DNA of 64,000 nt from Ostreococcus lucimarinus (lineage: Eukaryota), in assembly GCA_000092065.1 (NCBI GenBank), contig CP000581.1, one strand, 5' to 3'. Each line of letters opens with the position of its first letter. Position 1 is the first letter of the stretch. A program made the translations under genes and the position numbers. The notes below the pieces were generated by a model. It saw only the letters and a list, made by a program, of their open reading frames with translations. It was not told the DNA's origin and did no database searches. Shown here in pieces: positions 4,469 to 53,520 of the stretch.

Positions 4469-6394
4469 TCAGCTCGGTCCCATCGAGATTGGAACACCTT
4501 GCGAGGAAGCCTTGGAGCCAAGTTTTTCCTTCATGGTGTCCGTGGTCGAGCCCGGGGCGTCTTTGTAGTTGCCTAAAAACCTTGAGCGGAGTTCGCGGAA
4601 CATGGCGTCAGCCCTGTTGCCGCTCGTAGCGATGCCATCCTTCGTGCGCGAGACGCCGTCGAGCATGTCGTCGATGGACACCAATTGTCTACCGTCGCGT
4701 ACGCTCAATAATGCGGCTTCGTTGGCGACGTTGGCGAGCTCGGCGCCGGTGAAGCCTGGTGTGGCGCGAGAAATAACGTCGCACACAACGTCGACGTCTT
4801 CCTCGAGATCCAAACCGCGCAAGTGCACTGACAAGATTTGCGCTCTCCCTTGCTGCGTTGGCGGGCCGACAAACACGCGTCGCGTCAAACGACCGGGACG
4901 CAACAGCGCCGGATCGAGCGCGTCCGGTCGGTTCGTCGCAGCTAAAATCAAAATTCCACTGTCCTTGGCGAATCCGTCCATCTCTACCAGCAATTGATTG
5001 AGCGTTTGGTCGCGTTCTTCGTTCAGACCCGCGCCTCGCCGCGATCCGACGGCGTCGAGTTCGTCGATGAAAATAATCGCAGGTCTGGCCTTTCGCGCCT
5101 CGGCAAACAGCTCGCGAACGCGCGCCGCACCGCGGCCGACGAACAGTTCGACAAACTCGGACGCGGCGACGGGGAAAAACGCAACGCCGGATTCGCCCGC
5201 CACCGCGCGAGCGAGTAGCGTCTTACCCGTCCCCGGCGGTCCGACCAAAAGGCACCCCGTGGGAAGTCTGCCGCGAACGTTCTTGTACTTTTCGGCGTTC
5301 TTCATGATTTGCACCAATTCAAAAAGTTCGGCCTTTGCCTCTTGCACGCCCGCCACGTCGGCGAACGTCACCTTGTCGGCTTCGTCTGTGCGCGCAGCCT
5401 TTTTCCGCTTTTTATCGCCCGCACCGCTCTGTCTGTTGATGGCGTTCCGCATGATGATCATGAGCGGAATGATAGGCAACCACATCGCGAGCACGGTGAA
5501 CATACCGCGGGACGCCAATCTCGACACCGCCGCGGGAACCGCGCCGAATTCCACCCCCGCGGCTTCGAGCTTCTTCATCAGCTCTGCGTCGCCGACCAAT
5601 CGTTTCGTCTGCAGCGTTCTCGCACGCCCAACCGCCGCATTCGGCTTCAAATCGTACAACAATCGCGTCGACCCTTCCTCAAATCGCACCGTCGATATCT
5701 TCTTGCCCTTTAAATCCTTCAAAAACGAACTGTACATCGTCGTCGGCACCACCGGCGCCGCCGCCTTCTTCGCGTTGTGTCCCCTTATCGCCATCCCCGC
5801 CCCGACCGTCGCCGCCATCACCAACCCCAGCCTCCCCAGGCGCGTTCTCGCGCTCATCGCGATCGCTCGCGCCGGCGTCGCGATCACCAACCACACCAGC
5901 ACCGCGAACGCGCGTCGCGCCACCAGCCCGAGCAGCAGCGTTCGCGTCGCCACCCAGCGCCACGCCGAGAACGGTTTCCGCTCCACCGGCCCGAGATCAT
6001 CCGACGCCGCGCTCGCGCTCGCGCTCGCGTCATCCTCCCCACTCGCGCGTTCCGTCGCGCCGCCGTCGCCGCCATCGCGCGCCGCCGTCGCCGTCTTCGT
6101 CACCGCGTCCCGCTCGACGTCATTGCCTTCGCGCGCGTTATCCACCCCCTGCGGCGTCGACACCGCGCGCGCGCGGCTCTCGAGCCCCCGCGCGAGCGCG
6201 CCGTTCGCACCCGCATCGCTCGCGCGCGCTCGCGCGCCGAGCGCGGCGCTCGCGACGCCCCGGCGGTCCCGCGAACGCGTCGCGCGCGACGCCGACGTCG
6301 TCGTCGCGAATCCTCGCGCGCGGACGACGCCGCGCGGCGCGCTCGCGCGCGCGCGCGCGGCGCGCATCGCGGGCGACGGCATCGTCGTCGTCAT
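4469..6394 (-). CDS. FtsH-like AAA+ ATPase lacking the M41 zinc-protease motif (FtsHi-like, probably plastid envelope)
   Basis: 641 aa: R/A/S-rich N-terminus (presequence-like), FtsH extracellular-type domain (YSSFLKDLKGKKISTVRFEEGSTRLLYDLK), one TM, Walker A GPPGTGKT, Walker B IIFIDELD, second region of homology. The C-terminus is short and has no HEXXH, which is the architecture of the short plant FtsHi proteins. Confidence 0.7.
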   Translation of the reverse strand: MTTTMPSPAMRAARARASAPRGVVRARGFATTTSASRATRSRDRRGVASAALGARARASDAGANGALARGLESRARAVSTPQGVDNAREGNDVERDAVTKTATAARDGGDGGATERASGEDDASASASAASDDLGPVERKPFSAWRWVATRTLLLGLVARRAFAVLVWLVIATPARAIAMSARTRLGRLGLVMAATVGAGMAIRGHNAKKAAAPVVPTTMYSSFLKDLKGKKISTVRFEEGSTRLLYDLKPNAAVGRARTLQTKRLVGDAELMKKLEAAGVEFGAVPAAVSRLASRGMFTVLAMWLPIIPLMIIMRNAINRQSGAGDKKRKKAARTDEADKVTFADVAGVQEAKAELFELVQIMKNAEKYKNVRGRLPTGCLLVGPPGTGKTLLARAVAGESGVAFFPVAASEFVELFVGRGAARVRELFAEARKARPAIIFIDELDAVGSRRGAGLNEERDQTLNQLLVEMDGFAKDSGILILAATNRPDALDPALLRPGRLTRRVFVGPPTQQGRAQILSVHLRGLDLEEDVDVVCDVISRATPGFTGAELANVANEAALLSVRDGRQLVSIDDMLDGVSRTKDGIATSGNRADAMFRELRSRFLGNYKDAPGSTTDTMKEKLGSKASSQGVPISMGPS

Positions 6395-6617
6395 CGCGCG
6401 CGTCGACCGTCGCGTCGCGCGCGCGCGTCGAACACTGGCGCCGTCGGCGGGCGACTCGTCTCCTCAGTCAGCGACGCGCGGCGACGCGCGGCGACGACCT
6501 CGACGCGCGGCGCGCGCGAGCGGCGCGAGCGCCGTTCGAAGACGTCGGCGCGCGCGCGCCGCCGCGACGTCGCGGCGGCGCGGGACGCGCGCACCGCGCG
6601 AAGAGCCGCGCGACGTC
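6395..6617. promoter_or_regulatory. Divergent (bidirectional) promoter between the FtsHi-like gene (-) and the desulfurase-TtcA fusion gene (+)
   Basis: ~220 bp CGCG-rich spacer between two start codons pointing away from each other. The call rests on position and composition only. Confidence 0.4.
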
Positions 6618-9600
6618 ATGGCGGCGGCTTCGACGACGACGACGCGCGCGCGCGACGACGACGCGGGACGACGCGGGACGACGCGGGACGACGCGATGCG
6701 CCTCGACGCGATCCTCGAGAGCGTTCGAAGGGACATCGTCGGACACGGGGCGACGTTCGGCGGGGCGTACGGGACGAAGTCGCTGGTGTACGCCGACTAC
6801 ACGGCGAGCGGACGGGCGTCGCGAGCGGTGGAGCGGTGCGTCGCGCGAGACGTGCTGCCGATGTACGCGAACACGCACACGTCGACGTCGACGACGGGGT
6901 CGCAGACGTCGTGCTTTCGAGCGGAGGCGAGACAGGTGGTGGCGCAGTGCGTGAACGCGCGGGTGGGATACAGCGATAGACACGCCGACGTGGTGACGTT
7001 TACGGGAAGCGGGAGCACGAGCGCGATCGATCGGTTGGCGCGAGCGCTCGGGATGCACGTACCGTTACCGGTGAACGCGCCGAGGGAAGCGAGGCCGGTC
7101 GTGTTCGTCGGACCGCACGAACATCACAGTAATATTTTGCCCTGGCGCGAGTCGTGCGCGATTGTGGTGGAAATTCCAGAGGAAGAGAGCTCGGGAATGG
7201 TGGACGTGGACGCGTTGCGCGCGGCGCTGCGCGCGTACGCGTCACACGCGACGCTGATTGGAAGTTTTAGCGCGGCGAGTAACGTGACGGGGGTGAGGGC
7301 GGATGTGAATTTAATCACGGAGACGTTGCATCGAGGAAACGCGTTGGCGTTGTGGGACTACGCCGCCGCCGCGGCGTACGTCGACGTCGACATGAACCCG
7401 GTAGTTTTCGACGAAAACACCGGTGCGTTGAATCCGTACGTATACAAAGATGCGATATTTATGTCACCGCACAAGCTTCCGGGAGGGCCGGGTGCGCCCG
7501 GGATTTTAGTGGCAAAACGCGCATTGTTCGTGAACGAAGTGCCGAGCGAACCGGGCGGAGGAACTGTCTTTTATGTCACGAGCACCGATCACCGGTATTT
7601 AAGCAACAGAGTGGAGCGCGAAGAGGGTGGGACTCAAGACATCGTTGGAAGCATCCGCGCTGGCTTGGCGTTCCAAATGAAAGCTAACGTGGGGACGTCG
7701 TTGATTGAAGCGGCGGAGGAACGACTGCGACGACGATTGTTCGACGAGCTGGAGAAGGATGAGAATATTTGCTTACTCGGACCTCGGGCGAATTCGACGA
7801 CGAAGCGCTTGCCTATTGCGTCGTTTCTCATACGAGCCCCAGCGGTGGATTCGAAAAGTAGGTTTCTACACTACTCATTCACGTGCGCGGTGTTGAACGA
7901 CGTCTTCGGCGTGCAGGCGCGAGGCGGATGCGCGTGCGCAGGGCCGTACGCGCATCGTCTTCTCGGAATATCTCCAGCTGATGCAGCCGCGATCGAGGCG
8001 CACTTGCTAGACAAAGCCGAAGTATTACGACCTGGTTTTGCGCGCGTCAGTTTGCCATACTTCGCGTCTGATGCTGAGATTGAGTACACGTTGGCCGCGG
8101 TACGCGCCGTCGCCGCGCACGGCTGGCGCTTGCTGCCGATGTATCGCATGGACGCCAAGACGGGTGAATGGAGACACGCCCTTCGAGCACGAAGTTTCCC
8201 TGAACGCAAGTGGCTCGCACACATGCAGTTTCCTGTAGATTCGGAAGAAATACACGAATCACCGCCGAGTGAAGAGGAGATATCTCGCCGACTCGACGAA
8301 CAATTGAGCGTCGGGATGCGCATTCTGGAAACGTGCGGTCAGTATCGCGACGGTGAACAACAAGGCAAAGCGAAGAACGGTCAGTTACGCATGCCGAATT
8401 CAGGTGGTATGGCTGCGGATGAGCGCATGGTGCTCGCTGGAGGCCGCGGCGACGACGACTCGAGGCTCGCTTACGACGAGGGCGAAGAGGACGACGACGC
8501 TCCTGAGCCGACGACGAATATCGAGCGCGGCGACGCGCTTCGTTGGTTCATGTTTCCGTCCGAGGCGGCTGCCTTGCTTTCAATCGCGCTTCCAGAGCAC
8601 TCGCACAGCGGAATACTACCACTTAGTTACGTGCCTCCAACTGGGACGATCACCGGCGCATTGCGTCCGCCGAATATTTGCGGCGCTCGCGAATCGGCAC
8701 CAAACGCACACGGTCAAAGTTACCGAACCGAAAGCAGGAAACACCCACTGCGCGTGACGGAAGAGTCGGGAAGTATTCGATCGGGCTTGATTCATCAGCG
8801 AGCGGCACCGTTTTGTGTAGGTGATGCACCGAGCGCACCACAGCCTTCAGTCGCAGAGGCTGAATTTCGCGCCGAATCGACGCTCGAACCGCGCGTGCGA
8901 GAGCTCACACTCGACGTGTCACCACCGATGAAAGAAGTGACGGTGACGGAAGATAGCATGTCCGAAAAACGTGTTCCGATGACAAATGATCAAACGCTTG
9001 ATGGTGCCGTCAGAGAAAAAGAAGTGAAAAAGAAGAGACACAAGTTCGCCAAGCCGTCACCAAAGTTGTTGCGCATGGTGAACCAGGCGATACAAGACTT
9101 TGACATGATTCAACCCGGAGACCGTATTTTGCTTGGTCTTTCGGGAGGTAAAGATTCTCTCGCAATGTTACACATTCTGATGTGCATGATGTCGCGTTAT
9201 CCGCCCGGAACATTTACTCTCGCGTGCGCGACAGTAGATCCCGGCACCGAGGCGTTCAATCCTCGGCCTTTGATTCCTTATGTGGAATCTCTCGGCATCG
9301 AGTACCATTATCTCGAAGAAGAAATCATGGCGATGGCGGACGCGCACATGACTGGTGACAGTATTTGTGCGTTCTGCGCGCGTATGAAACGGGGCGCTCT
9401 ATACACGTGTTGTCGCAAGTATGGTTACAACAAGCTCGTTCTAGCACAACATTTAGATGACTGTGTGGAGAGTTTCCTGATGAGCACAATGTACAACGGA
9501 ACGATGCGAACGATGAAAGCGTCGTATCTCATCGACGAGGGTGATATCACTGTCATTCGTCCCGCCATTTACTTACGCGAGAAGGCTTTACGTGACTTTT

Positions 9601-18980: not shown

Positions 18981-20012
18981 ATGCGCGCGTCGTCGCGTCG
19001 CCGCGCGCGCGCGCCGACGGCGCGGCGGTTTTTCGCGCTCTTTTCGTCGCTCGCCGTCGCGGCGCGCGCGGCGCCGGACAGGGTCGGCTGCGACCGGAAG
19101 GTGTCCGGCGTCGACATCATGACGAAATCGAGGATAATGGACCGGACGCCGAGCGTCGGGTCGTTCGTGACCGCGAGCGCGCCGACGTACGGGCCGAACG
19201 ATCCGATAACGATCACGCTCACCGGTTTGGCGCGCGCGGCGTTCGCGCACGCGAGCGCGGGGACGGCGACCACCATTTCTGGATTCACCGCGAAGTCGTG
19301 CGGCGGGACGGCGCAGCAGTACGCGAACTCGGGCGCTTCGGGAACGAAGACGTTCACGTGGACGGCGCCCGCGGATCTCACGAGCGTGTCGAGCGTGGAT
19401 ATTTCGGCCGGGTACGCCGCCGGGCAAGGCGCGGTGACGAGACAGACGATCACGCTGACTCGAGCGCCGGGGGCGGCGTGCGCGACGAACCAACGCGTGT
19501 CGAGCGGCGCGTGCGTCGCGTGTCCGGCGGGATCGACGCGCGCCGCGGGCGATCCGGTGTACGGCGGCGATACGACGTGTACGGCGACTCTGTGCGCGAC
19601 GAATGAACGCGTATCGAACAACGCGTGCGTCGCGTGCGCCGGGTCGGCGACGAACGCCGCCGGCGACGACGCCACGCAATCGGATACGACGTGCGACGGC
19701 GCGGCGTGCGCGTCGAACCAACACGTCTCGTCCAGCAGCTGCACCGCGTGTCCCGCGGGCACGACGCGCGCCGCGGGCGATCCGGTGTACGGCGGCGATA
19801 CGACGTGTACGGCGACCGCGTGTGGGGCGAATGAACGCGTATCGAACAACGCGTGCGTCGCGTGCGCCGCGTACACCACCAACGCCGCCGGCGACCTCGC
19901 CAACGGCGGCGACACCGCCTGCGACGCCGCCTCGGCCGCGCCGGCCGGTCCAAAATTTATCGTATTCGCCCTCTTCACCGCCCTCGCGTGCGCGTGCGCG
20001 CGCGTCGCTTGA
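18981..20012 (+). CDS. Secreted/GPI-anchored cysteine-rich surface protein with tandem GCC2/GCC3 (ephrin-receptor-like) repeats
   Basis: Signal-like MRASSRRRARAPTARRFFALFSSLAVAARAAP. Repeats of C..N.RVS..ACVACPAG.TRAAGD....GGDTTCTAT.C. C-terminal hydrophobic tail PKFIVFALFTALACACARVA. The start is taken at the ATG at 18981 because the ORF-track start at 18942 would overlap the CstF-64 start codon. Confidence 0.6.
   Translation: MRASSRRRARAPTARRFFALFSSLAVAARAAPDRVGCDRKVSGVDIMTKSRIMDRTPSVGSFVTASAPTYGPNDPITITLTGLARAAFAHASAGTATTISGFTAKSCGGTAQQYANSGASGTKTFTWTAPADLTSVSSVDISAGYAAGQGAVTRQTITLTRAPGAACATNQRVSSGACVACPAGSTRAAGDPVYGGDTTCTATLCATNERVSNNACVACAGSATNAAGDDATQSDTTCDGAACASNQHVSSSSCTACPAGTTRAAGDPVYGGDTTCTATACGANERVSNNACVACAAYTTNAAGDLANGGDTACDAASAAPAGPKFIVFALFTALACACARVA
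19480..19900. repeat. Internal tandem duplication (~230 bp unit, near-identical copies) inside the GCC2/GCC3 gene
   Basis: gatccggtgtacggcggcgatacgacgtgtacggcgac...gaatgaacgcgtatcgaacaacgcgtgcgtcgcgtgcgcc occurs at ~19551 and again at ~19781 with a few substitutions. It encodes the repeated AAGDPVYGGDTTCTAT.C..NERVSNNACVACA unit. Confidence 0.8.
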
Positions 20013-23427: not shown

Positions 23428-24876
23428 ATGTCCGCGGCGCGCGCGCGCGCGGCGAACGCGCGAACGACGCGCGCGGCGCGCGGACGCGTCGCGGGCGCAC
23501 GCGCGGGCGCGCGCGGCGAGCGCGCGGGCGCGAGACGAAGGATCGCTCGACCGGCGGGGGCGACGGCGGCGACGACGGCGTTCGACATGCGGACGTACGT
23601 CGAGCGCGATCTCACCGCGGAAGAGCGCGTGGAGGTGATGCGTCGACCGCGGGTGGACTTTACGAGCATCCTGGACACGGTGAAGCCGATCGTGGAGGCG
23701 GTGGGAACGCGCGGGGACGCGGCGGTGCGCGAGTACACGAGCAAGTTCGACGGCGTCGATTTGGAAGCGGTGACGGTGCGCGTGGATGAATTGCCCGATC
23801 CCGTGCTGGATGATGATGTGAAGAAGGCGTTTGACGTGGCGTACGACAATATCGCGGCGTTTCACGCGGCGCAGGCGAAGAGCGGGGACGTGGACGTGAC
23901 GACGATGCCAGGGGTGCGCTGTCGACGCGTGTCGAGACCGATCGGAGCGGTCGGACTGTACGTCCCGGGCGGCACCGCGGTGTTACCGAGCACGGCGCTC
24001 ATGCTCGCGGTGCCGGCGAAGATTGCCGGGTGCGAACGCGTCGTGCTCGCGACGCCGCCGCGCAAGGATGGTTCCATCGTTCCGGAGGTGCTGTACGTGG
24101 CGAAAAAGGCGGGGGTGACGCACATTCTCAAGGCTGGCGGCGCGCAAGCGATCGCGGCGATGGGATTCGGCACGGAAACGTGCCCGAAGGTGGATAAGCT
24201 CTTCGGTCCGGGGAATCAGTTTGTGACGGCGGCGAAGATGTCGCTGCAAAACTCAGACGCGATGGTTTCCATCGACATGCCCGCGGGCCCGAGTGAGGTG
24301 CTCGTCATCGCGGATAAAGACGCCCCCGCCGCCCACGTCGCCGCCGATCTCTTGTCTCAAGCCGAGCACGGGCCGGACAGCCAGGTGGTTTTGGTGACGT
24401 TCCCGGACGTGGATTTGAAGGCTATCACGGACGCCGTGGCGGACCAAGCGAGCAAGCTCCCGCGCGCCGAAATCACCGCCAAGGCGCTCGGCCACTCCTA
24501 CGCCGTCGTCGTTGACGACATGGCGGCCGCGTGCGATTTTAGCAATCGATACGCTCCCGAGCACTTGATCGTAAACGTCGAAAATGCGGAATCATGGTTA
24601 CCGCAGTTAGACAACGCCGGTTCCATCTTCCTCGGGCGCTGGACCCCAGAATCCGTGGGCGATTACGCCAGCGGCACCAACCACGTTTTACCCACCTATG
24701 GCTACTCTCGCATGTACTCCGGCGTATCCTTGGACTCTTTCGTTAAGTACATGACGGTTCAAGAGCTCACCAAGGAAGGTTTAGACGCGCTCGGTCCTCA
24801 CGTCGCCAGGATGGCGGCGGTCGAAGGTTTGGACGCGCACAGATCCGCCGTGACTTTACGCTTAGGCATCGACTAG
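23428..24876 (+). CDS. hisD: Histidinol dehydrogenase (HisD) with R/A-rich presequence
   Basis: ATG at 23428 ([14 protein letters not shown]...), then MRTYVERDL...; [53 protein letters not shown] are hallmark HisD motifs. Part of ORF 22786..24876, whose 5' portion is antisense to chlI. Confidence 0.85.
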
Positions 24877-27789: not shown

Positions 27790-28785
27790 ATGGCCTCGCG
27801 CGTCGCCGCGCGCGTCGCCGCGCGCCTGCGCGCGGCGCGCGACGGCGCCGCGTCGACGCGCGCGATCGGCGGCGCGCGCGCGATCGCGACGCGCGCGACG
27901 ACGACGGGAGAGGAGGATGAAGACGCGAATGCGAATGCGAATTCGCCGCGCGTCGAGACGACGACGCTGTATCGACGCGCGCTGAAGCGCGCGCGGCGGC
28001 TGCCGGACCCGTGCGCGCGACACTTCGCGCGCGAACGATTCGCGAGCGCGTTCAGGCGATACGCAGAGGTGACGAGCGCGAGGGAGATCGAGAAGAGGCG
28101 AGGGGAGGCGGCGCGATGGACGCGGCGGCTGCGGCGAAGCGGACGCGACGACGACGATTATCGGGCGGTGCTGGAACGCGCGTACGGATTGCGAGGAAGG
28201 ATGAAACACATGGTGAAAGCGTGCGAGGAGGAGTGCGGGGAGGGGGCGCCGGTGAAGACGCGACGGGCGACGCGGTTCGCGCTGCCGGCGACGAACGAAC
28301 GCACGGGGGAGACGTACTCGTTGAGATATTTGTTCTCCGCGATGGAGGCGCAGCGCGCGGCGGGGGGGGAGACGGAGGATGAGAGCTTAGCGGCGCAGAT
28401 GCGAATGTTGCGGTTGAGGGTGCCGCGGTATTTTCATCCCAACGGCGTCGCCGCGCGAGCGACGAATGCGAGGGCGAATGAGCAAACCGACGACGCGTCG
28501 ACGACGGCGGATTTCGTGCGCGTGTGGCCTTGGGAAGCGGCGACGGAAGAAGATCTGGCGAACCCATCGCCGTCGTACGGGATCGGTACGATGGCCAGTG
28601 CGGAAAGCTGGGAGATGGTGCACTTGGCGCTGTTGAAGACGACGTTCGTGCCTTTGATGATGGAACGCGTGAAGACGATGAGTCGACGCTCGAGACGCGT
28701 GTACGAACGCACGTTTGATCTCGAGCGCACGTTCGTTTCCGTGGACGATATCGACGACGTTCATGAAGGTGATTTCTCGGCGTGA
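27790..28785 (+). CDS. LYR-motif (Complex1_LYR family) protein with a long C-terminal extension
   Basis: TLYRRALKRARRLPDPCARHFARERFASAFRRY is a canonical LYR/K...F motif following an R/A-rich presequence-like N-terminus. The remaining ~220 aa have no assignable domain. Confidence 0.55.
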   Translation: MASRVAARVAARLRAARDGAASTRAIGGARAIATRATTTGEEDEDANANANSPRVETTTLYRRALKRARRLPDPCARHFARERFASAFRRYAEVTSAREIEKRRGEAARWTRRLRRSGRDDDDYRAVLERAYGLRGRMKHMVKACEEECGEGAPVKTRRATRFALPATNERTGETYSLRYLFSAMEAQRAAGGETEDESLAAQMRMLRLRVPRYFHPNGVAARATNARANEQTDDASTTADFVRVWPWEAATEEDLANPSPSYGIGTMASAESWEMVHLALLKTTFVPLMMERVKTMSRRSRRVYERTFDLERTFVSVDDIDDVHEGDFSA

Positions 28786-35575: not shown

Positions 35576-38290
35576 TTACAGGAGAGTGGCCCAAGCCTTG
35601 GCGGGCTGGACGCCGCGAGGGGCGTCGGCGGCGCCGCCGGTAGCGAGGGACGGAAACGCCTCCTCGCATTCGACGACTGGGACTCTCGTTTTGCCTTTAC
35701 GCGAACGAACGCGCTTGGTCTTGGACTGTGCGTTTGATGAATCGTTCCCGGCGGCGGAATCGTCGGACTGCGGGGTGATGGTGTGCTCCCCGGGAGACCC
35801 TTCCATCGGCGAGGACTGGGAGGAGTCTTCGGCGACGAGCGCTGGCGTCTTGGGGCGATCGTCCACGACGGGTTTCTCCGCGTTGGCCTTGAGAACGTCG
35901 ATAGGTGCTGATCCTTTCGGACCCCACGAAGGCTTTACCGTCGATGGCGTCGCCGCCACGTCGTCAAGCGAAGCCGAAGATGTATCCGTCAACGCGACAT
36001 TGACAGCCAGCTTGTCCTCGATGTCTTTTTTCAGCATGGCCGCCATCGTGACTGCTTTGTCTTCCTCGCTCGTCGGCTGCTCGTTCATGAACTTGGCCGG
36101 AAGCTTTGCGACTCCGCTCCACGCTTGTGGAAACGTGGGCGACGGCCTCGGCGATCGAGTTCGCCGCGGCGCGTCATCCTCGATCGAGGATGACGCCTCT
36201 TTGGCTGGATCGACCTCTTTGGCTGGATCGACGTGCGGAAAGTGCGCGCTCATATCCTCGAAAACAGCAGTAGAGTTGTTGTCGCTCGCGTAACCACGCT
36301 TCGCCGTGCCCAGTGGCGGCACTCCCGGAGGAGGAGGTGGTGGAACAGCCGATTGGAAACTTTGTTGCGCCGCGCTCTTGCTCGCCTTGTTGCTCCTAGA
36401 CGCGTTTCGAGAACGGTTGTACGGAGGACGATTACCGTTGCCTCGTCGATTATTGTTGTTGGAACTTCGACGCCGGTCATCACCACTTCGTCTTGCCGCG
36501 ATCGTTCGCTCGTGCGCGCGTCGGTGGTGGAACACACCAAAAGCCAAATGCTCACGAATGGTGTCAAGACATCCGGTAAAGATGTCATTGATGCCCGGCG
36601 CGGTGGCGTCCTCGGGGATGGGCGGCTGCTTACTATCTGCACCATCGCACGAGTCGTGCTGTTCGCCAGAATCGTCCGAAAAAAAACTCTGAGGCGGTGA
36701 TGTGGACATTTGCGCGCTGTCGTCGTCGATTGATCGTCGCTCGTCACTCGTCGGAACTCGCTGCTCATCCCCGAGAGCGTCCCAGCGACCCCAGTGGATG
36801 CCGCGCTCTTGTTCAGAGAGTGAACCCATGGACTCGCTTCGCTTGTGAAGACCGCCGCGCTCTGGCGAGGGTGGATCGCCGAGCGTGGGCCAATGGTTCG
36901 CCGCGACGGCTGACGACTCGTCGGCTTCCGCGTCCTTCGACTCCGAGTCTTCCATGTTCAGCTGTCTCGGTTGTAACTCGTCCACGACCGAGCGCGTGTG
37001 AGGATGCGTCGCGAGCGCGGTCGCCGGTGTCGTGCCTTCGACGAGGCAGCTTCTCGAACGTAAAGCGATGGCGCTTGTCGGCATTCCCATGGGCGTCATT
37101 GAAACCTCATCGGCGTGCGAGCATCCCCCCGGCGTGTCCGGCGCGTGCGGAAGCGGGTAAAGTAAACGCCTGTGACGTAAGATGTTCCCAAACATTTCCA
37201 CGAACCCTCGCAACACACCGACGTCATCGCGCGCCGCAGAAGAGGCCATCAGCGCATCCAGACGTTGCGCTCCAAGCTTGAGCGCCGCGCGCACGCGTCT
37301 ATAATTGCCGCAAGATACAGAGCGGCCTAAGTTGTTATTGGGTAAAAGAGGATCGATGATGTTCATGTACTTCACGGTCACGGGCGCTGAGCTCGCCGCC
37401 GCGCGCATGAACTCGCAACTGTACGTCGACAACATCGTCCGCATGAACTCTTCGGTGATCAAACCACCCTCCAGACACTCGTCGGGCGGCGTCGCGATGC
37501 CCTCGATCGCCACCGGTCCGTGAATCGTGAGCGCGTAGCCTTCCCAATCAAACTCGGCGAAAACGCTCAAAAGCTTGTGCAACACGGACAACGGGCACGT
37601 CAAGTCGGCGTGATACTTGTTGATGATGTACAAAACGAGCGTCTCCAACGCGTACGTGGAAATCAAGGCGTGATGCGCTCCTAAGATGCGCCCCTCGTAA
37701 AATCCCCAAGCCTTGACGAGAATGATCGAGCGCACGAACAAATCGTCCCTACCGATGAACGCGTTCATCTCTTCTAAAAATCCGAGCGACGCCAAGCCAC
37801 CAAACTGATTGGCGCTCACGTCCACCATCATCCCGTCCACGATGCACTTCATCAGCCGTACCTCTGCGTTGATCACGCTCACCTCACTCACCGCGAACTC
37901 GTGGGGCGGATCCGCCTCCGCCTCCGCCTTCTCGATGTGTTTCCTAAACTTGGTCGTCCACTGCGCCTTATCGATCACGCGATGATCACCCAGCAAGCAC
38001 ACGTCGATGTCGCCGTCCGGAAGATACGCCCGCAGCGGCACGCTCCCGTACGCGCTCACCAGCGTGTGCGCCGTCCCGAAGCACTCCTGCGCCAACTGTT
38101 TGATGTGCTCAAACACCGCCCGTCGCCGAATCTCGCTCATCTCCGTCGGCCGCAGCGACGCCACGAGCTCGTTCGTCAGCGTCTCCAGTCCGCCCGCGTC
38201 CCCGCTCGCGCTCGCGCGTCCGCTCCCCGCGCTCCGCTCCCGTTTCGCCCCTCCCGGCGCGCGTTCGCTCGCGTACGGGCACCTCGACAT
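35576..38290 (-). CDS. Nucleotidyltransferase-fold protein (Pol-beta-like NTase + PAP/OAS1 substrate-binding-like region) with long low-complexity C-terminus
   Basis: GSVPLRAYLPDGDIDVCLLGD is the GS...D.D NTase motif, followed by a region resembling the PAP/OAS1 substrate-binding domain. The C-terminal ~450 aa are S/R/N-rich. Confidence 0.55.
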   Translation of the reverse strand: MSRCPYASERAPGGAKRERSAGSGRASASGDAGGLETLTNELVASLRPTEMSEIRRRAVFEHIKQLAQECFGTAHTLVSAYGSVPLRAYLPDGDIDVCLLGDHRVIDKAQWTTKFRKHIEKAEAEADPPHEFAVSEVSVINAEVRLMKCIVDGMMVDVSANQFGGLASLGFLEEMNAFIGRDDLFVRSIILVKAWGFYEGRILGAHHALISTYALETLVLYIINKYHADLTCPLSVLHKLLSVFAEFDWEGYALTIHGPVAIEGIATPPDECLEGGLITEEFMRTMLSTYSCEFMRAAASSAPVTVKYMNIIDPLLPNNNLGRSVSCGNYRRVRAALKLGAQRLDALMASSAARDDVGVLRGFVEMFGNILRHRRLLYPLPHAPDTPGGCSHADEVSMTPMGMPTSAIALRSRSCLVEGTTPATALATHPHTRSVVDELQPRQLNMEDSESKDAEADESSAVAANHWPTLGDPPSPERGGLHKRSESMGSLSEQERGIHWGRWDALGDEQRVPTSDERRSIDDDSAQMSTSPPQSFFSDDSGEQHDSCDGADSKQPPIPEDATAPGINDIFTGCLDTIREHLAFGVFHHRRAHERTIAARRSGDDRRRSSNNNNRRGNGNRPPYNRSRNASRSNKASKSAAQQSFQSAVPPPPPPGVPPLGTAKRGYASDNNSTAVFEDMSAHFPHVDPAKEVDPAKEASSSIEDDAPRRTRSPRPSPTFPQAWSGVAKLPAKFMNEQPTSEEDKAVTMAAMLKKDIEDKLAVNVALTDTSSASLDDVAATPSTVKPSWGPKGSAPIDVLKANAEKPVVDDRPKTPALVAEDSSQSSPMEGSPGEHTITPQSDDSAAGNDSSNAQSKTKRVRSRKGKTRVPVVECEEAFPSLATGGAADAPRGVQPAKAWATLL

Positions 38291-38739
38291 CGTCGTCCGT
38301 CGTCCGTCGCGCCCGTCGCCCTCGCCCGCGTCCCTCTCGCGTGCCTTTCGCGCGTCGTCGGCGTCGCGCGTCGGCGCCGCTCGAATCCGTCGTCGCGTCG
38401 CGATCGCGTCGGCGTCGTCGTCTCGCGTCGATCGCGCGCGCCGTCGGGTCGATCGCGCGCGAGAGTTCGCCCGCGCGCGCGTCGCGCGCCTCGGCGCGCT
38501 CGCGCGTCGTCGTCTCGCGCCGGCGCCGTCGCGCGCGCGGTGCCGCCCTATCCGGACGGGGCGTCGCGCGCGTGATTCCGCTGTCTCACTGTTTGCCCAT
38601 AGGATGGGCGTCCGCCGCGGCGACCGCGCGTCGCGCGCCGCAGAGCGCGGCGCGCGGCGACGCGAGCGCGCGTTTTCGAAGGCGCGACTCGCGCGCGCGC
38701 GGCGACCGCGACTCGCGCGCGCGCGCGGGCGCGACGGCG

Positions 38740-39399
38740 ATGGCGCGGCGACGCCAACGTTCGAAGTGGCGGTTGACGACGACGCTGACGGCGACGACGC
38801 TCGCGACGGCGATCGGACGCGCGCGCGTGGGCCGAGCGCAGTTCCAGCGCGCGACGGATTACGAGTATCGCGTGTGCGCGGAACAGCCGGGAGAGTACGC
38901 GACGACGCAGACGGACGGGACGACGGCGACGCGGGCGCGGTGCGTGTCGCTGGACGCGGGCGAGCTCGGGTTCTGCGCGGGGATCGCGTACGACGCGTGC
39001 GTGCGCACGAATCCGCCGTCGACGCAGGATAAACGCGTGCTGAGCGCGTTCGAGAGGATGACGAAGATGCAAAGCGCGATGGCGCCGGAATTAGCGGGGG
39101 AGCCGACGTGCCTGGTGGTGATGGCGGAGTACATGTGCGCGGTGGCGTTTCCGAGGTGCGATCCGGATCCGTTGGAGGCGACGAAGTACAACGAGGTGCC
39201 GGCGTGTTGGGATTATTGCACGAATTCGGTGTTCGGGTGCACGGGGGAGATGGCGACGGCGATGGACGTGTGTAATCGTTCGGTGTACGCGGGGGTGGTG
39301 GTGGCGCAAGACAGGCCAGACGTTAAGTGCGTGAGCGGGGCGGGCGAGTTGGTGTTGATCACCGTCGCGATGATGACCGTCGCGCTCGTGCTCCTGTAG
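38740..39399 (+). CDS. Cysteine-rich (12 Cys) predicted secreted/GPI- or TM-anchored protein, paralog A
   Basis: ATG at 38740 within ORF 38341..39399 (upstream part is R-rich, likely non-coding). Cys spacing C-x10-C-x7-C ... C-x7-C-x6-C ... C-x3-C-x6-C-x9-C. C-terminal hydrophobic ELVLITVAMMTVALVLL. Confidence 0.5.
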   Translation: MARRRQRSKWRLTTTLTATTLATAIGRARVGRAQFQRATDYEYRVCAEQPGEYATTQTDGTTATRARCVSLDAGELGFCAGIAYDACVRTNPPSTQDKRVLSAFERMTKMQSAMAPELAGEPTCLVVMAEYMCAVAFPRCDPDPLEATKYNEVPACWDYCTNSVFGCTGEMATAMDVCNRSVYAGVVVAQDRPDVKCVSGAGELVLITVAMMTVALVLL

Positions 39400-39444
39400 A
39401 TTTGGGTTTAGCTAGGTACCCGTACTGTACAATACTATCGCGCG

Positions 39445-40296
39445 CTAAGCTGCTATCGACGCGAACGACGCGAAAACCGTCGCGGCGAACAACGCGACTC
39501 GCGCGCTCGCGAGGGCGGCGCCGCCCGTGCACTTACCCGGCGACGGCTCGAAAATCGCCGTGCCGTTTTCCCCGTTCGGTTTCCTGCCGTAAATATAATT
39601 CCCATTCGCTTTCCCTTCGGCGTCGTTGTAGTACGTGCCGTTGCCGTCGTACGAGCCGCCCGTGTAAAACGTCGCCGGCGTGTTTCCGCCGAAATCTTGC
39701 TCCTCGTACTCCAAACCACAGTTTATGAACGCTGAGTTCGCCTCCCCGCACGATTTTTTCACCGCGATGCACGTCGCCGTGCACGTGGGCATGAACCGCG
39801 TCTCGTCCACGTTGCACCGACTAAAGTATTCGAAACAAAACCATCGTCGCAGCGTCGCTCGACACCCCGCCGTCGGTTCGAACGTCAGCTGTCGAATCAA
39901 ATTCAAGTACTGCTTTCGCAGCGCTTGCTCCATCAGATCCACGCTCGCTTGATCGCTCGTCCCCGCCGCCAGCGTCGCCGCGCTCCCTCGTTTACAAAAC
40001 GTGTACTGCACGCGTTCGTCGCAAAACTCGAGCGTCACCGCGTCGCTCGACACGCACCCGTGTCGGCACTTGAAGTACTCCGCGGAGTCCGTGGAGCCGC
40101 CGATCGCGGAGGCGTCGGCGAAGAAGTCGGCGCTGACGTCGGTGTTGATGTTGGAGACGTCGAACGACAGGTACGGATGCGGCGACGACGCGCTCGTCGC
40201 GTCCGCGCGCGCGAGGCGAGCGAACGCCGCGCACGAAGCGATGAGCGACGCGACGACGCGCGCGCGGGCGCGAGGACGAGGACCCGCGCGCGACAT
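39445..40296 (-). CDS. Cysteine-rich (12 Cys) predicted secreted/GPI-anchored protein, paralog B (convergent with paralog A)
   Basis: ATG at 40296 (MSRAGPRPRARARVVASLIASCAAFARLARA, signal-like). Same Cys spacing as paralog A, e.g. CVSSDAVTLEFC vs CVSLDAGELGFC and EPTAGCRATLRRWFCFEYFSRC vs EPTCLVVMAEYMCAVAFPRC. C-terminal hydrophobic ALFAATVFASFASIAA. Confidence 0.5.
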   Translation of the reverse strand: MSRAGPRPRARARVVASLIASCAAFARLARADATSASSPHPYLSFDVSNINTDVSADFFADASAIGGSTDSAEYFKCRHGCVSSDAVTLEFCDERVQYTFCKRGSAATLAAGTSDQASVDLMEQALRKQYLNLIRQLTFEPTAGCRATLRRWFCFEYFSRCNVDETRFMPTCTATCIAVKKSCGEANSAFINCGLEYEEQDFGGNTPATFYTGGSYDGNGTYYNDAEGKANGNYIYGRKPNGENGTAIFEPSPGKCTGGAALASARVALFAATVFASFASIAA

Positions 40297-40415: not shown

Positions 40416-41506
40416 TCAGGCGCGTCGCGCGGCGTCGCGAAGGCCGCCCTGCTTGGCGAGCATTTTGTCTTTGATGGCGCGGACGCTCTTGTCGCGGCCG
40501 GACCATAAATCGTCGTCGTCGCCCTTTCGCGCCGCGCTCGTGTCTTCCGCGGCCAAGTGCGTCCATTTGGTTTGGCCGGCGCGACCGAATTTTCCCTTGC
40601 GAACTTGCATGGCGGCGGGGAGGATGGACTTGTCGAACTTTTCCTCCGCCGTCGGGGCGGAGAAGTCGCGCTTGTAAATTTCATCTGGGCCCGCGGTGCC
40701 GAACGCGTCGTCGGCCGATTCTTGGAAGAACGCGCCCTTGTGGTAATACTTCTGCATGAACGCCATCTTGGGTTTTTCCTTTTCCTGCTCCGCGCGTTTC
40801 GCGAGGCGTTTGGCGTGATACAAGTCGCGCTCTTCCTCGGTCATCGAGCGGATGCGTTCTTGCTCTTCGCGTTCGCGGAAAATCAATTCGCGCTGGATCC
40901 TATCCGTTTTCAAACGCTCGAGCTCGCGGGACTTCCACGCGTCGAATTCGAGGGCATCGTCGAGCTCGTCGTCGGTGTCCACGTCGCTCGGTTCCATCTC
41001 GTCCATCGCCGCCGCGAGAGCCTCTTCGCGCTTGACTTCGACTTCGACCAACTTTTTGCTCTCCGCCTTCTTCGCCGCCTTGGCCGCCTCCGTCTTCGCC
41101 GCCTCGGCGTCGAGTTCGGCCAGCATCTTATCCCGCTCCTCGATCGTGTCTCGCTCAATCTTACGCACGAACACGGGCTTGAACATTTTCCGCGCGCCGC
41201 CGCCGCCGGAATCGCTCGCGTCGCTATCCGTCTCGTATTCGCTATCCGTTTCGTACGACGACGACGACGCCCCACCGTTCCCCGGTTCGCCCGTCGCCAA
41301 CGCACCGTCGCGTCGCGCTACCGCAACCGCGCCGCCCGCGCCGCCGTCCTCCGCATCCTCCTCGTCGTCGTCCTCCGCGCGTTCCGTCTCTCGAGCCGCC
41401 GCGCGCGCTCGAATCGCCGCCCGTCTCGCGTCTCGCGCCTCCTCGTCCTCGCTCTCCGACGAGCTCGCGTCGCTCGCGCTCGACGACGCGTTCCCTCGCG
41501 CGCGTC

Positions 41507-41544
<38 letters not shown>

Positions 41545-41807
41545 TCGCGTTCCGTTCGCGTCCGCGCGAACCCGAGCGCGTCCTCGTCCTCTTCCTCGCT
41601 CTCGCTCTCGCGCGTCGCGCGTCCGTCGTCGACGCCCGCGCGGTGTCTCCGCACCACCGTCGTCGCGCGTCGCATCGCGTCCTCGCGCGCGCCGCTTCGC
41701 GCCGCTTCCTCGCGCGCGCGATCGACCGCGAAGGCGTTGGCGGCCGCCCTCAATTTCGACGCCCGCTCGTCGTCCATCGCCGCGCGCGCGGCGCCCGCGC
41801 GCCCCAT
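40416..41807 (-). CDS. MFAP1: Microfibrillar-associated protein 1 (MFAP1) homolog, spliceosomal B-complex protein
   Basis: FKPVFVRKIERDTIEERDK...DELDDALEFDAWKSRELERLKTDR...MQKYYHKGAFFQ...YKRDFSAPTAEEKFDKSILPAAMQVRKGKFGRAGQTKWTHL aligns along the MFAP1 C-terminal domain. Start taken at MGRAG (41807). The ORF-track start at 41903 would sit 38 bp from the divergent CA start. Confidence 0.8.
41508..41546. repeat. (GTC)n/(ACG)n trinucleotide repeat encoding poly-Thr inside MFAP1
   Basis: cgtcgtcgtcgtcgtcgtcgtcgtcgtcgtcgtcgtc on the plus strand, translated TTTTTTTTTTTT on the minus strand. Confidence 0.85.
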
Positions 41808-41940
41808 TTTCGCGCGCGTTTCTTCGCGTCCGTCTCGCGCGCGCGTTTCTTCGCGACGTCGGCGCGCGCGCGTGTGCCGACGCGGCGCGTCGCGCGCGCG
41901 CACCCCTCGGCGCGCACACGCCGACGCGCGGCGTCGCGCG

Positions 41941-51558: not shown

Positions 51559-51655
51559 CGTCGTCGTCTTTCCATCCTTCGCTCCCGTCGCGCGCGTCGC
51601 GCGCGTCGCGCGCCGCGTCGGCGTCGCGCGCGCCGCGCATCGCGCGCGCATCGCT

Positions 51656-51687
<32 letters not shown>

Positions 51688-51754
51688 TGTGCTTTCGCCG
51701 CGTCGCGTCGCGTCGTCGCCGTGACGCTTTTTCGTCACATCGCGCCGCGCCGCG

Positions 51755-52757: not shown

Positions 52758-52890
52758 CATCGCCCATCTTCGCGCGCCCATCTTCGCGCGCGCGCCGCGT
52801 CTCGCCGCCGACGAAAATCAACCGAAAAACGCCGCCGCCCGCGCGCCGCCCCATCATCCGCCAGACGCCGCCGCGCCCGCGCGCGCGACG

Positions 52891-53520
52891 ATGCGCGCGA
52901 CGCCGCGCGCGCGCGGGGCGTCGAAGCGCGACGACGCGGACGCGCGACGCTCGACGCGCGCGACGCGCGCGCGGCGTTTGGTGGTTTTCCGACGCGGCGC
53001 GTACAAAGGTTTAAAGGAAAAACCGCCGTTTCGCACGACGTGGGACGTGCCCTGCGAGCGCCTGGACGTCAAGCTCGGACACCGCGACGGGACGGCGTCG
53101 CGGTTCGGGTCGATCGTCACCGTGTCGTGCGACGTCGAGCCCGTGGGGGCGCACGGCTTTTTTCTCGCCGCCGCGATTCGCGGCGCCGTCGACTGCGCGT
53201 GCGCGTCGTGCGGCGTCGTCTTCGCGCACGCGCTTCCGGAACACCGCGACGACGGCGACGACGACGATGACGTCGTCGTCGTCGACGCGCCGTGCGCGTT
53301 CACCGCTTGGCTCGATCCAGATTTCGTCTCCACCGCGGACGGCGCGTCGAGCGCGAGCGGCGACGCCGAGGTGTTCCCGTTCCCTCCCTCTCGCGACGCC
53401 GTCGATCTCACCGATCTCGTCGTCGACACGATCGACGCCTTCGGCGTGCCCGACGAGTGCGTGTGCGACGCCTGTCGCGCCGCCGAACCGCGCGCGTGGT
53501 CCACCGAGCGCGCGATGTAA
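52891..53520 (+). CDS. DUF177/YceD-like protein (plant homologs are plastid proteins needed for 23S rRNA accumulation)
   Basis: C-terminal DAVDLTDLVVDTIDAFGVPDECVCDACR matches the DUF177 D..DL...V.D.I.L..P...LC...C motif. Start taken at MRATPRARG (52891) because the 5' part of ORF 52729.. covers the WDR83 3' UTR containing TGTAA. Confidence 0.55.
   Translation: MRATPRARGASKRDDADARRSTRATRARRLVVFRRGAYKGLKEKPPFRTTWDVPCERLDVKLGHRDGTASRFGSIVTVSCDVEPVGAHGFFLAAAIRGAVDCACASCGVVFAHALPEHRDDGDDDDDVVVVDAPCAFTAWLDPDFVSTADGASSASGDAEVFPFPPSRDAVDLTDLVVDTIDAFGVPDECVCDACRAAEPRAWSTERAM

Follow-up and report, generated by a model that had tools for sequence, protein, structure and literature searches.

Divergent Frizzled-type cysteine-rich domains in a convergent gene pair of Ostreococcus lucimarinus, with tails resembling GPI-attachment signals

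Introduction

Frizzled (Fz) cysteine-rich domains (CRDs) are mostly discussed as modules of the animal Wnt and Hedgehog receptors. Domains of this fold hold, for example, the palmitoleate of Wnt (FZD8), sterols (Smoothened and NPC1), and folate or riboflavin (their carriers). Fz-like CRDs commonly bind small hydrophobic molecules, which are accommodated between the core helices, and it has been proposed that an ancestral sensor of hydrophobic molecules gave rise to the Fz fold (PMC3809587). Pei and Grishin (2012), quoted in PMC6938638, give the FZ-CRD signature as CnCnCX8CX6CnCX3CX6,7CnCnC and its disulfides as C1-C5, C2-C4, C3-C8, C6-C10 and C7-C9. Here, we describe two convergent genes, called A and B in the following, in a stretch of 64,000 nucleotides from the green alga Ostreococcus lucimarinus (NCBI GenBank assembly GCA_000092065.1, contig CP000581.1), which we refer to as the window. 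An initial annotation of this DNA had presented their products as paralogous 12-cysteine surface proteins with no recognisable domain. Our main result is a correction: the seemingly unclassifiable 12-cysteine domain is, with high confidence, a divergent Fz CRD, found here in a wall-less marine picoalga whose two copies, both ancient and conserved, comprise little more than a CRD and a probable GPI anchor.

The Frizzled cysteine framework

The two genes and the regions that define their domain are as follows.

38740 to 39399, plus strand: gene A, 219 amino acids plus stop, from the open reading frame, its translation and an exact-sequence look-up.
39445 to 40296, minus strand: gene B, 283 amino acids plus stop, from the same three sources.
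38941 to 39330, plus strand: Fz-type CRD of gene A, from C68 (Fz C1) to C197 (Fz C10), in which C87 is an extra cysteine.
39529 to 40056, minus strand: Fz-type CRD of gene B, from C81 (Fz C1) to C256 (Fz C10), with C101 and C77 as the extra cysteines.
38875 to 38877, plus strand: codon of C46 in gene A, a residue that is invariant in the A family and absent from canonical Fz domains.

Protein A contains 12 cysteines (C46, 68, 79, 87, 124, 133, 140, 156, 160, 167, 178 and 197). Protein B contains 13, one of which (C22) lies in its signal peptide, leaving 12 in the mature product (C77, 81, 92, 101, 145, 154, 161, 172, 176, 183, 193 and 256). The spacing is C68-x10-C79 ... C124-x8-C133-x6-C140-x15-C156-x3-C160-x6-C167-x10-C178-x18-C197 in A and C81-x10-C92 ... 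C145-x8-C154-x6-C161-x10-C172-x3-C176-x6-C183-x9-C193-x62-C256 in B, so that both proteins carry ten cysteines in the order and with the spacing of the published signature. The pattern C-x8-C-x6-C-x(5-25)-C-x3-C-x(6-7)-C has exactly two matches across all six reading frames of the 64 kb, one in each gene, and no further copy of the family was found in the window either by tblastn or by a six-frame regular-expression search for the cysteine motif.

Read in this way, the 12 cysteines are the ten of the Fz framework plus two that are specific to this family. The first of these lies upstream of Fz C1 (C46 in A; C77 in B, three residues before C1) and the second 7-8 residues past Fz C2 (C87 in A; C101 in B). 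In A, C46 is embedded in a conserved motif, Y-x-Y-R-V-C-x-E-Q-P-G. We infer that the two extra cysteines pair with each other as a sixth disulfide (C46-C87 in A, C77-C101 in B).

Assignment to the Frizzled family

The Pfam Fz family (PF01392) is the only one matched by either protein, even at E<=10, with 22.6 bits for A (E 1.6e-4, residues 76-173) and 25.6 bits for B (E 1.9e-5, residues 97-187). By E-value, both matches are significant. To place the two proteins among their relatives, we used orthologue sets of 18 sequences for A and 11 for B (50-94% identity). Fz is again the only family matched, below the gathering score, in all 11 B-family and 15 of the 18 A-family members (26 of 29 in total). 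PF01392 is already assigned to several B orthologues in precomputed annotation, and one close algal relative (P0035) clears the gathering score (33.7 versus 32.1 bits). The two proteins bear the name 'predicted protein' at NCBI and 'FZ domain-containing protein' in UniRef.

Residue-level correspondence was assessed with animal proteins from Pinctada, Asterias and Branchiostoma whose Fz domains match the Pfam model end to end with high scores. In the alignment with these three domains, C1 to C9 form invariant columns and C10 is aligned in seven of the eight sequences; the tyrosine that follows C2 is invariant and a proline precedes C6. Around C5, the algal F-[PS]-x-C aligns with the animal [YF]-x-P-x-C. 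When the family profile was trimmed to its core and compared with 11 canonical animal Fz domains using hhalign, the two matched with a probability of 94.7% (E 6.1e-8). An exhaustive search of 1.84 billion representatives with the family profile returned at least 150 proteins (cluster representatives) at E<1e-3, including a protein of Pycnococcus provasolii, animal proteins with four to nine Fz domains and Pfam Fz scores of 131-851 bits, and a papain-like protease fused to Fz domains.

Structural databases point in the same direction. About 30 of the 38 PDB matches of the core profile are Fz CRDs, among them MuSK (E 0.0046), Ror2 (E 0.0055) and FZD5 (E 0.016), as well as Smoothened, FZD8, FZD10 and sFRP3. 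The full-length family profiles gave weak matches, which improved on trimming to the CRD core. In a Foldseek search with the AlphaFold2 model of A, a model of low confidence, the top seven matches are all Fz CRDs. Single-sequence PDB searches with A and B returned no significant match; of the candidates that they suggested, UL131A was rejected since it matches through its own signal-peptide region, and thymic stromal lymphopoietin was set aside as spurious.

Some of these results weigh against the assignment. Both A and B score under the Pfam gathering threshold of 32.1 bits, the hhalign match is local and covers 47 columns only (C3 to C8), and none of the PDB sequence matches is strong by itself (E 0.005-0.9). 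Predicted from an alignment of 27 sequences, the AlphaFold2 models are of low confidence (mean pLDDT, the predicted local distance difference test, of 57.6 for A and 47.8 for B), so that the fold matches carry limited weight. No single test is overwhelming because this branch is divergent; all of the independent lines agree on Fz and on nothing else, and we assign A and B to the Fz-CRD family with high confidence. It is very improbable that they represent a new lineage-specific cysteine-rich domain with an Fz-like spacing reached by chance or convergence: the sub-threshold Pfam scores, the empty single-sequence PDB searches, the two extra cysteines and the 62-residue insert in B would suit such a domain, but the ten Fz cysteines, the tyrosine after C2 and the F-[PS]-x-C at C5 are all in place, Fz is the sole Pfam match across the family, the profile aligns with and retrieves canonical animal Fz proteins, the fold searches point to Fz CRDs only and UniRef names both proteins accordingly.

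The initial annotation was thus accurate in its description of the locus and mistaken in its interpretation of the domain. Its two tail-to-tail open reading frames stand at the coordinates that it gave, and its gap of about 45 bp is exactly 45 bp; the count of 12 cysteines per protein holds for the mature products. The statements that no domain could be recognised and that the Frizzled CRD has a different spacing are contradicted by the Pfam, hhalign and UniRef results and by the presence of the published signature in both proteins. The claim of novelty, which by its own criterion a confident match to a known domain such as Fz would remove, largely falls with them, and the family is not 'lineage-specific' given the breadth of the profile search. 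The domain is not new: it is a divergent branch of a well-known family, which the automatic annotation of UniProt had already named.

Extracellular targeting and the C-terminal tail

Both proteins have termini of the kind expected for secreted, membrane-tethered precursors.

38740 to 38841, plus strand: signal-like N-terminus of gene A, residues ~1-34, with a basic n-region and an h-region rich in Thr, Ala and Leu, read from the sequence.
40204 to 40296, minus strand: signal peptide of gene B, residues ~1-31 (MSRAGPRPRARARVVASLIASCAAFARLARA), containing C22, from hydropathy, with a predicted cleavage site.
39331 to 39396, plus strand: tail of gene A resembling a glycosylphosphatidylinositol (GPI) signal, VSGAGELVLITVAMMTVALVLL, from pattern analysis.
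39448 to 39528, minus strand: GPI-signal-like tail of gene B, TGGAALASARVALFAATVFASFASIAA, from pattern analysis.

The signal-like N-termini that had been noted for both proteins differ in strength. That of B is clear, with a best 10-mer Kyte-Doolittle value of 2.30. In A, the h-region is weak and Thr-rich (best 10-mer 1.47), which counts against secretion of this protein, whereas most A orthologues have a clear h-region; a possible cleavage site in A lies after GRA.

The hydrophobic C-terminal tail, which had been described as consistent with a GPI or transmembrane anchor, is present in both proteins. In A, an omega triplet of small residues, either SGA or GAG, leads through a short spacer to a hydrophobic end 16 residues long. 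The same layout recurs in all 27 aligned members: C10 is followed at +2 by a small-residue triplet (SGA, GGA, GAA, SAA or AGS), a short spacer that frequently includes a single Arg or Lys, and 12-17 hydrophobic residues, after which there are 0-6 trailing residues bearing at most one charge. The sequences thus show the pattern of GPI proteins, namely an N-terminal signal together with an omega-type C-terminal layout. The tail most likely represents a GPI-attachment signal of the classic kind and not a stop-transfer anchor, and A and B are probably GPI-anchored.

The stretch could instead serve as a transmembrane anchor, which weighs against the GPI proposal. Under this alternative, which we consider possible but less likely, one transmembrane helix would close each protein, leaving next to nothing on the cytoplasmic side. 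The hydrophobicity of the 12-17-residue ends (Kyte-Doolittle 2.1-3.3) is compatible with such a helix, and GPI biosynthesis is described as unusual or truncated in some chlorophyte lineages (PMC3797821). On the other hand, the stretch is short for a membrane-spanning helix and runs to the extreme C-terminus with no basic stop-transfer cluster, and the small-residue triplet two residues past the last cysteine in every aligned member is the classic layout of an omega site. Moreover, Ostreococcus and Micromonas are reported to have the complete set of core GPI mannosyltransferases; the core glycosyltransferases named for them are PIG-A, PIG-M, PIG-V and the last mannosyltransferase (PMC3797821). 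GPI attachment remains the reading that we prefer for the tail.

A putative binding module independent of Wnt

Taken together, we think it likely that A and B are ancient paralogues that are secreted with a single divergent Fz CRD, would be tethered by GPI and act as a binding module without Wnt. To our knowledge Wnt is absent outside animals, and green algae have neither Wnt nor Hedgehog, so that a Wnt-independent role is required. The precursor is of the secreted type and comprises a single Fz-type CRD with an extra cysteine pair, directly followed by the putative GPI signal. Once processed, the protein would sit at the outer face of the plasma membrane as a helical module stapled by disulfides, a surface location that we infer from the predicted termini. 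There, the CRD could work as a stand-alone extracellular binding module in one of two ways: through a groove holding a small hydrophobic ligand (a fatty acyl chain, a sterol or a similar molecule), or through protein-protein contact.

We favour, tentatively, the first of these, in which A and B would capture or sense a hydrophobic ligand. This proposal is by analogy only, since lipid binding is not the established mode of the CRDs of MuSK and ROR2, which match most closely in structure, a point that weighs against it. Recognition of another protein, in adhesion, in mating or as a docking site for prasinoviruses, is an equal rival and just as tentative. The CRDs of MuSK and ROR2 act mainly via protein contacts, and as the best structural matches of our low-confidence models they fit this second possibility better. 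Ostreococcus has no wall, so its GPI proteins may be directly exposed, and A and B could form a heterodimer. Against protein recognition, no co-variation and no partner was identified, and the genes that flank the pair are unrelated housekeeping genes. For the proposed function as a whole, it is also unfavourable that a literature search on A, B and Fz domains in Ostreococcus and Micromonas found no study and no expression, localisation or binding data.

Two ancient and conserved subfamilies

A and B align over 87 amino acids with 31% identity in BLASTP (E 5e-5), and pairwise and joint alignments place their identity at about 23-31%. The profiles of the two families match each other over 109 columns (hhalign, E 2.9e-5), and the joint MAFFT alignment of 27 sequences contains, besides 11 invariant cysteine columns, invariant Phe, Pro, Gly and Ala positions. 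The paralogy put forward in the initial annotation holds, because the two products align beyond their cysteines, as the pairwise comparison that it proposed makes clear.

Each subfamily has features of its own. Ahead of C1, the A-type proteins share the stretch F-x-R-A-x-D-Y-x-Y-R-V-C-x-E-Q-P-G, which carries the extra cysteine; this N-terminal motif recurs in distant relatives, including GHP10374.1 of Pycnococcus provasolii. The B-type proteins are distinguished by an insert.

39532 to 39717, minus strand: insert of gene B between Fz C9 and C10, residues 194-255, 62 residues rich in Gly, Asn and Tyr, defined from the B-family alignment.

The insert contains two N-x-T sequons (NGT at 219 and 244) and is strongly conserved in all B-type orthologues as well as in a distant B-type relative (P0050). 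Neither A nor the canonical Fz domains have it, and it gave no Pfam or PDB match. Both subfamilies are under strong purifying conservation. A further homologue search seeded with the combined alignment added no new members.

The gene order of the window, in which the convergent pair stands between an MTPAP-like gene on the side of A and MFAP1 followed by Pro_CA on the side of B, recurs in the O. tauri assembly GCA_002158475.1 and in several marine metagenome contigs. In the latter, A and B are 50-65% identical to the window proteins, and the tail-to-tail gaps of these related contigs measure 33-125 bp. An A-type relative is found beyond the Mamiellophyceae, in Pycnococcus. By these comparisons the A/B duplication is ancient, given the 23-31% identity of the two proteins and the A-type relatives outside the Mamiellophyceae, and the convergent layout is a conserved state rather than the trace of a recent inversion.

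The initial annotation had proposed a local inverted duplication; the tail-to-tail paralogues are indeed there, whereas a recent event in this lineage is very unlikely. Adjacency, a separation of 45 bp and the fact that neither A nor B has any other relative in the window would agree with such an event. Their low identity does not, nor do the conserved traits proper to each subfamily (the Y-x-Y-R-V-C motif of A and the G/N/Y insert of B) or the retention of the pair with its flanking genes both in O. tauri and on several diverged contigs. Furthermore, the alignments group sequences by subfamily across species, A-type and B-type relatives turn up separately among the distant matches, and in one related sample the two genes lie on different contigs.

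This last case comes from the metagenome sample JGI 3300033183. On one long related contig (L002 6001-7411), gene A is missing from its usual place and B directly adjoins the MTPAP-like gene. The same sample has an orthologue of A (P0018) on another contig (L003 6001-6690), between coatomer-epsilon and a methyltransferase. If both contigs derive from one organism, this points to a relocation of A in that lineage.

It should also be noted that the O. tauri orthologue of gene B (GCA_002158475.1, KZ155792.1; L010 6025-6576) has an open reading frame of only 183 amino acids, which ends just past Fz C6. P0009, a metagenome protein that is almost identical to it, has the full length of 285 amino acids. 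The difference suggests that the O. tauri assembly contains a frameshift, an intron missed in annotation or a misassembly.

Gene models, spacer and surroundings

Both genes are intact and convergent. Gene A starts at the ATG at 38740, the first in frame, and its stop codon ends at 39399. Gene B, on the minus strand, starts at the ATG at 40296 and has its stop codon at 39445-39447. Longer open-reading-frame extensions exist upstream of both ATGs. For B, 40296 is a plausible start because the upstream in-frame ATGs fall within the MFAP1 coding sequence (40416-41903), and the B orthologues begin at the same Met in the B-family alignment. Exact full-length look-ups identify the products as ABO93950.1 / XP_001415658.1 / UniProt A4RS10 for A and ABO94292.1 / XP_001416000.1 / UniProt A4RS11 for B, all from Ostreococcus lucimarinus CCE9901 and both on a record of 1.15 Mb; since both are returned as NCBI models, the two gene models are independently supported.

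The cluster representatives of A and B in the metagenome data, P0014 (275 amino acids) and P0001 (314 amino acids), are longer than the true models of 219 and 283 amino acids. They are overlong because metagenome gene callers that follow bacterial rules extend both to upstream non-ATG starts.

39400 to 39444, no strand: spacer between the two stop codons, 45 bp, from the sequence and an inverted-repeat scan.

Within this spacer lie short overlapping palindromes: GGTACC, GTACTGTACAATAC (with TGTACA in its centre) and CGCGCG. The 3' untranslated regions of A and B must overlap or abut here, and a palindromic element of the TGTA type could in principle act as a 3'-end signal for both convergent transcripts.

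The flanking genes encode an MTPAP-like nucleotidyltransferase, the splicing factor MFAP1 and a beta-carbonic anhydrase (Pro_CA); a functional hint for the pair was sought among these three and none was found, as they are unrelated housekeeping genes.

Several repeats occur elsewhere in the window. Many tracts of CG-dinucleotide and CGCGAC-type low complexity, apparently intergenic or 5', are located at 6315-6695, 23433-23532, 27797-27897, 51586-51719 and 52872-52973 and, directly upstream of the start codon of gene A, at 38213-38747. The longest tandem array in the window, at 19473-19902, has a 228-bp unit in 1.9 copies with 86% match and an internal 114-bp period. On the minus strand, a perfect (CGT)12 run at 41508-41544 corresponds to a 12-residue poly-Thr tract within the MFAP1-like gene.

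Implications for the origin of the domain

These stand-alone Fz CRDs, with their GPI-type tail and a predicted extra disulfide, form two ancient and conserved subfamilies in prasinophyte green algae, which are not known to have Wnt, Hedgehog or Frizzled receptors. O. tauri is genetically tractable and permits homologous recombination, and such proteins could therefore provide convenient minimal models for what an Fz CRD does where there is no Wnt, as well as a means to date the domain. The usual view places the root of the Frizzled family in the opisthokont-amoebozoan ancestor (PMC12716839). It is a speculative and rather unlikely suggestion that the Fz CRD proper predates this ancestor and that the prasinophyte proteins preserve an ancestral role as sensors or carriers of hydrophobic molecules; an ancient horizontal transfer of the Fz CRD into algae is an alternative origin.

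Comparison with known systems

Neither protein is a Frizzled or Smoothened receptor: with 219 and 283 amino acids, each has a single hydrophobic stretch at its extreme C-terminus and no Pfam match to the Frizzled seven-transmembrane family. An identification as sFRP was likewise rejected, as there is no NTR domain. No kinase or other additional domain was detected in A or B, and neither Folate_rec (PF03024) nor a glypican family was matched in Pfam at E<=10.

The Frizzled, sFRP and Smoothened CRDs (Pfam PF01392, PROSITE FZ) share with A and B the pattern C-x8-C-x6-C-n-C-x3-C-x6-C, the P-x-C before C6 and the Tyr after C2. They differ in what surrounds the domain, as FZD and SMO carry a bundle of seven transmembrane helices and sFRP an NTR domain, of which A and B carry neither. 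The best true PDB profile matches are the CRDs of MuSK and ROR1/2 (PDB entries 3hkl, 9lgg, 7me4 and 9fse), which have the same ten-cysteine framework. In those proteins the CRD is one module of a large kinase receptor with Ig or Kringle domains, whereas in the alga it would be the whole mature protein; the algal proteins also have two extra cysteines and a GPI-like tail, and the identity is only 13-20%.

GPI-anchored members are also known in the wider superfamily of the Fz fold, namely folate receptor alpha and the glypicans. The folate receptors are set apart by 16 cysteines and by large protrusions that surround the core, and the glypicans are much larger and carry heparan sulphate. Other prasinophytes also have uncharacterised proteins named FZ domain-containing, for example GHP10374.1 / A0A830HT93 of Pycnococcus provasolii, an A-type relative (family profile E 9e-21). 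It is longer (439 amino acids), with an extra N-terminal region and no Pfam match at E<=0.01, but like A it has the N-terminal Y-P-Y-x-x-C motif, the extra cysteine after C2 and a hydrophobic tail.

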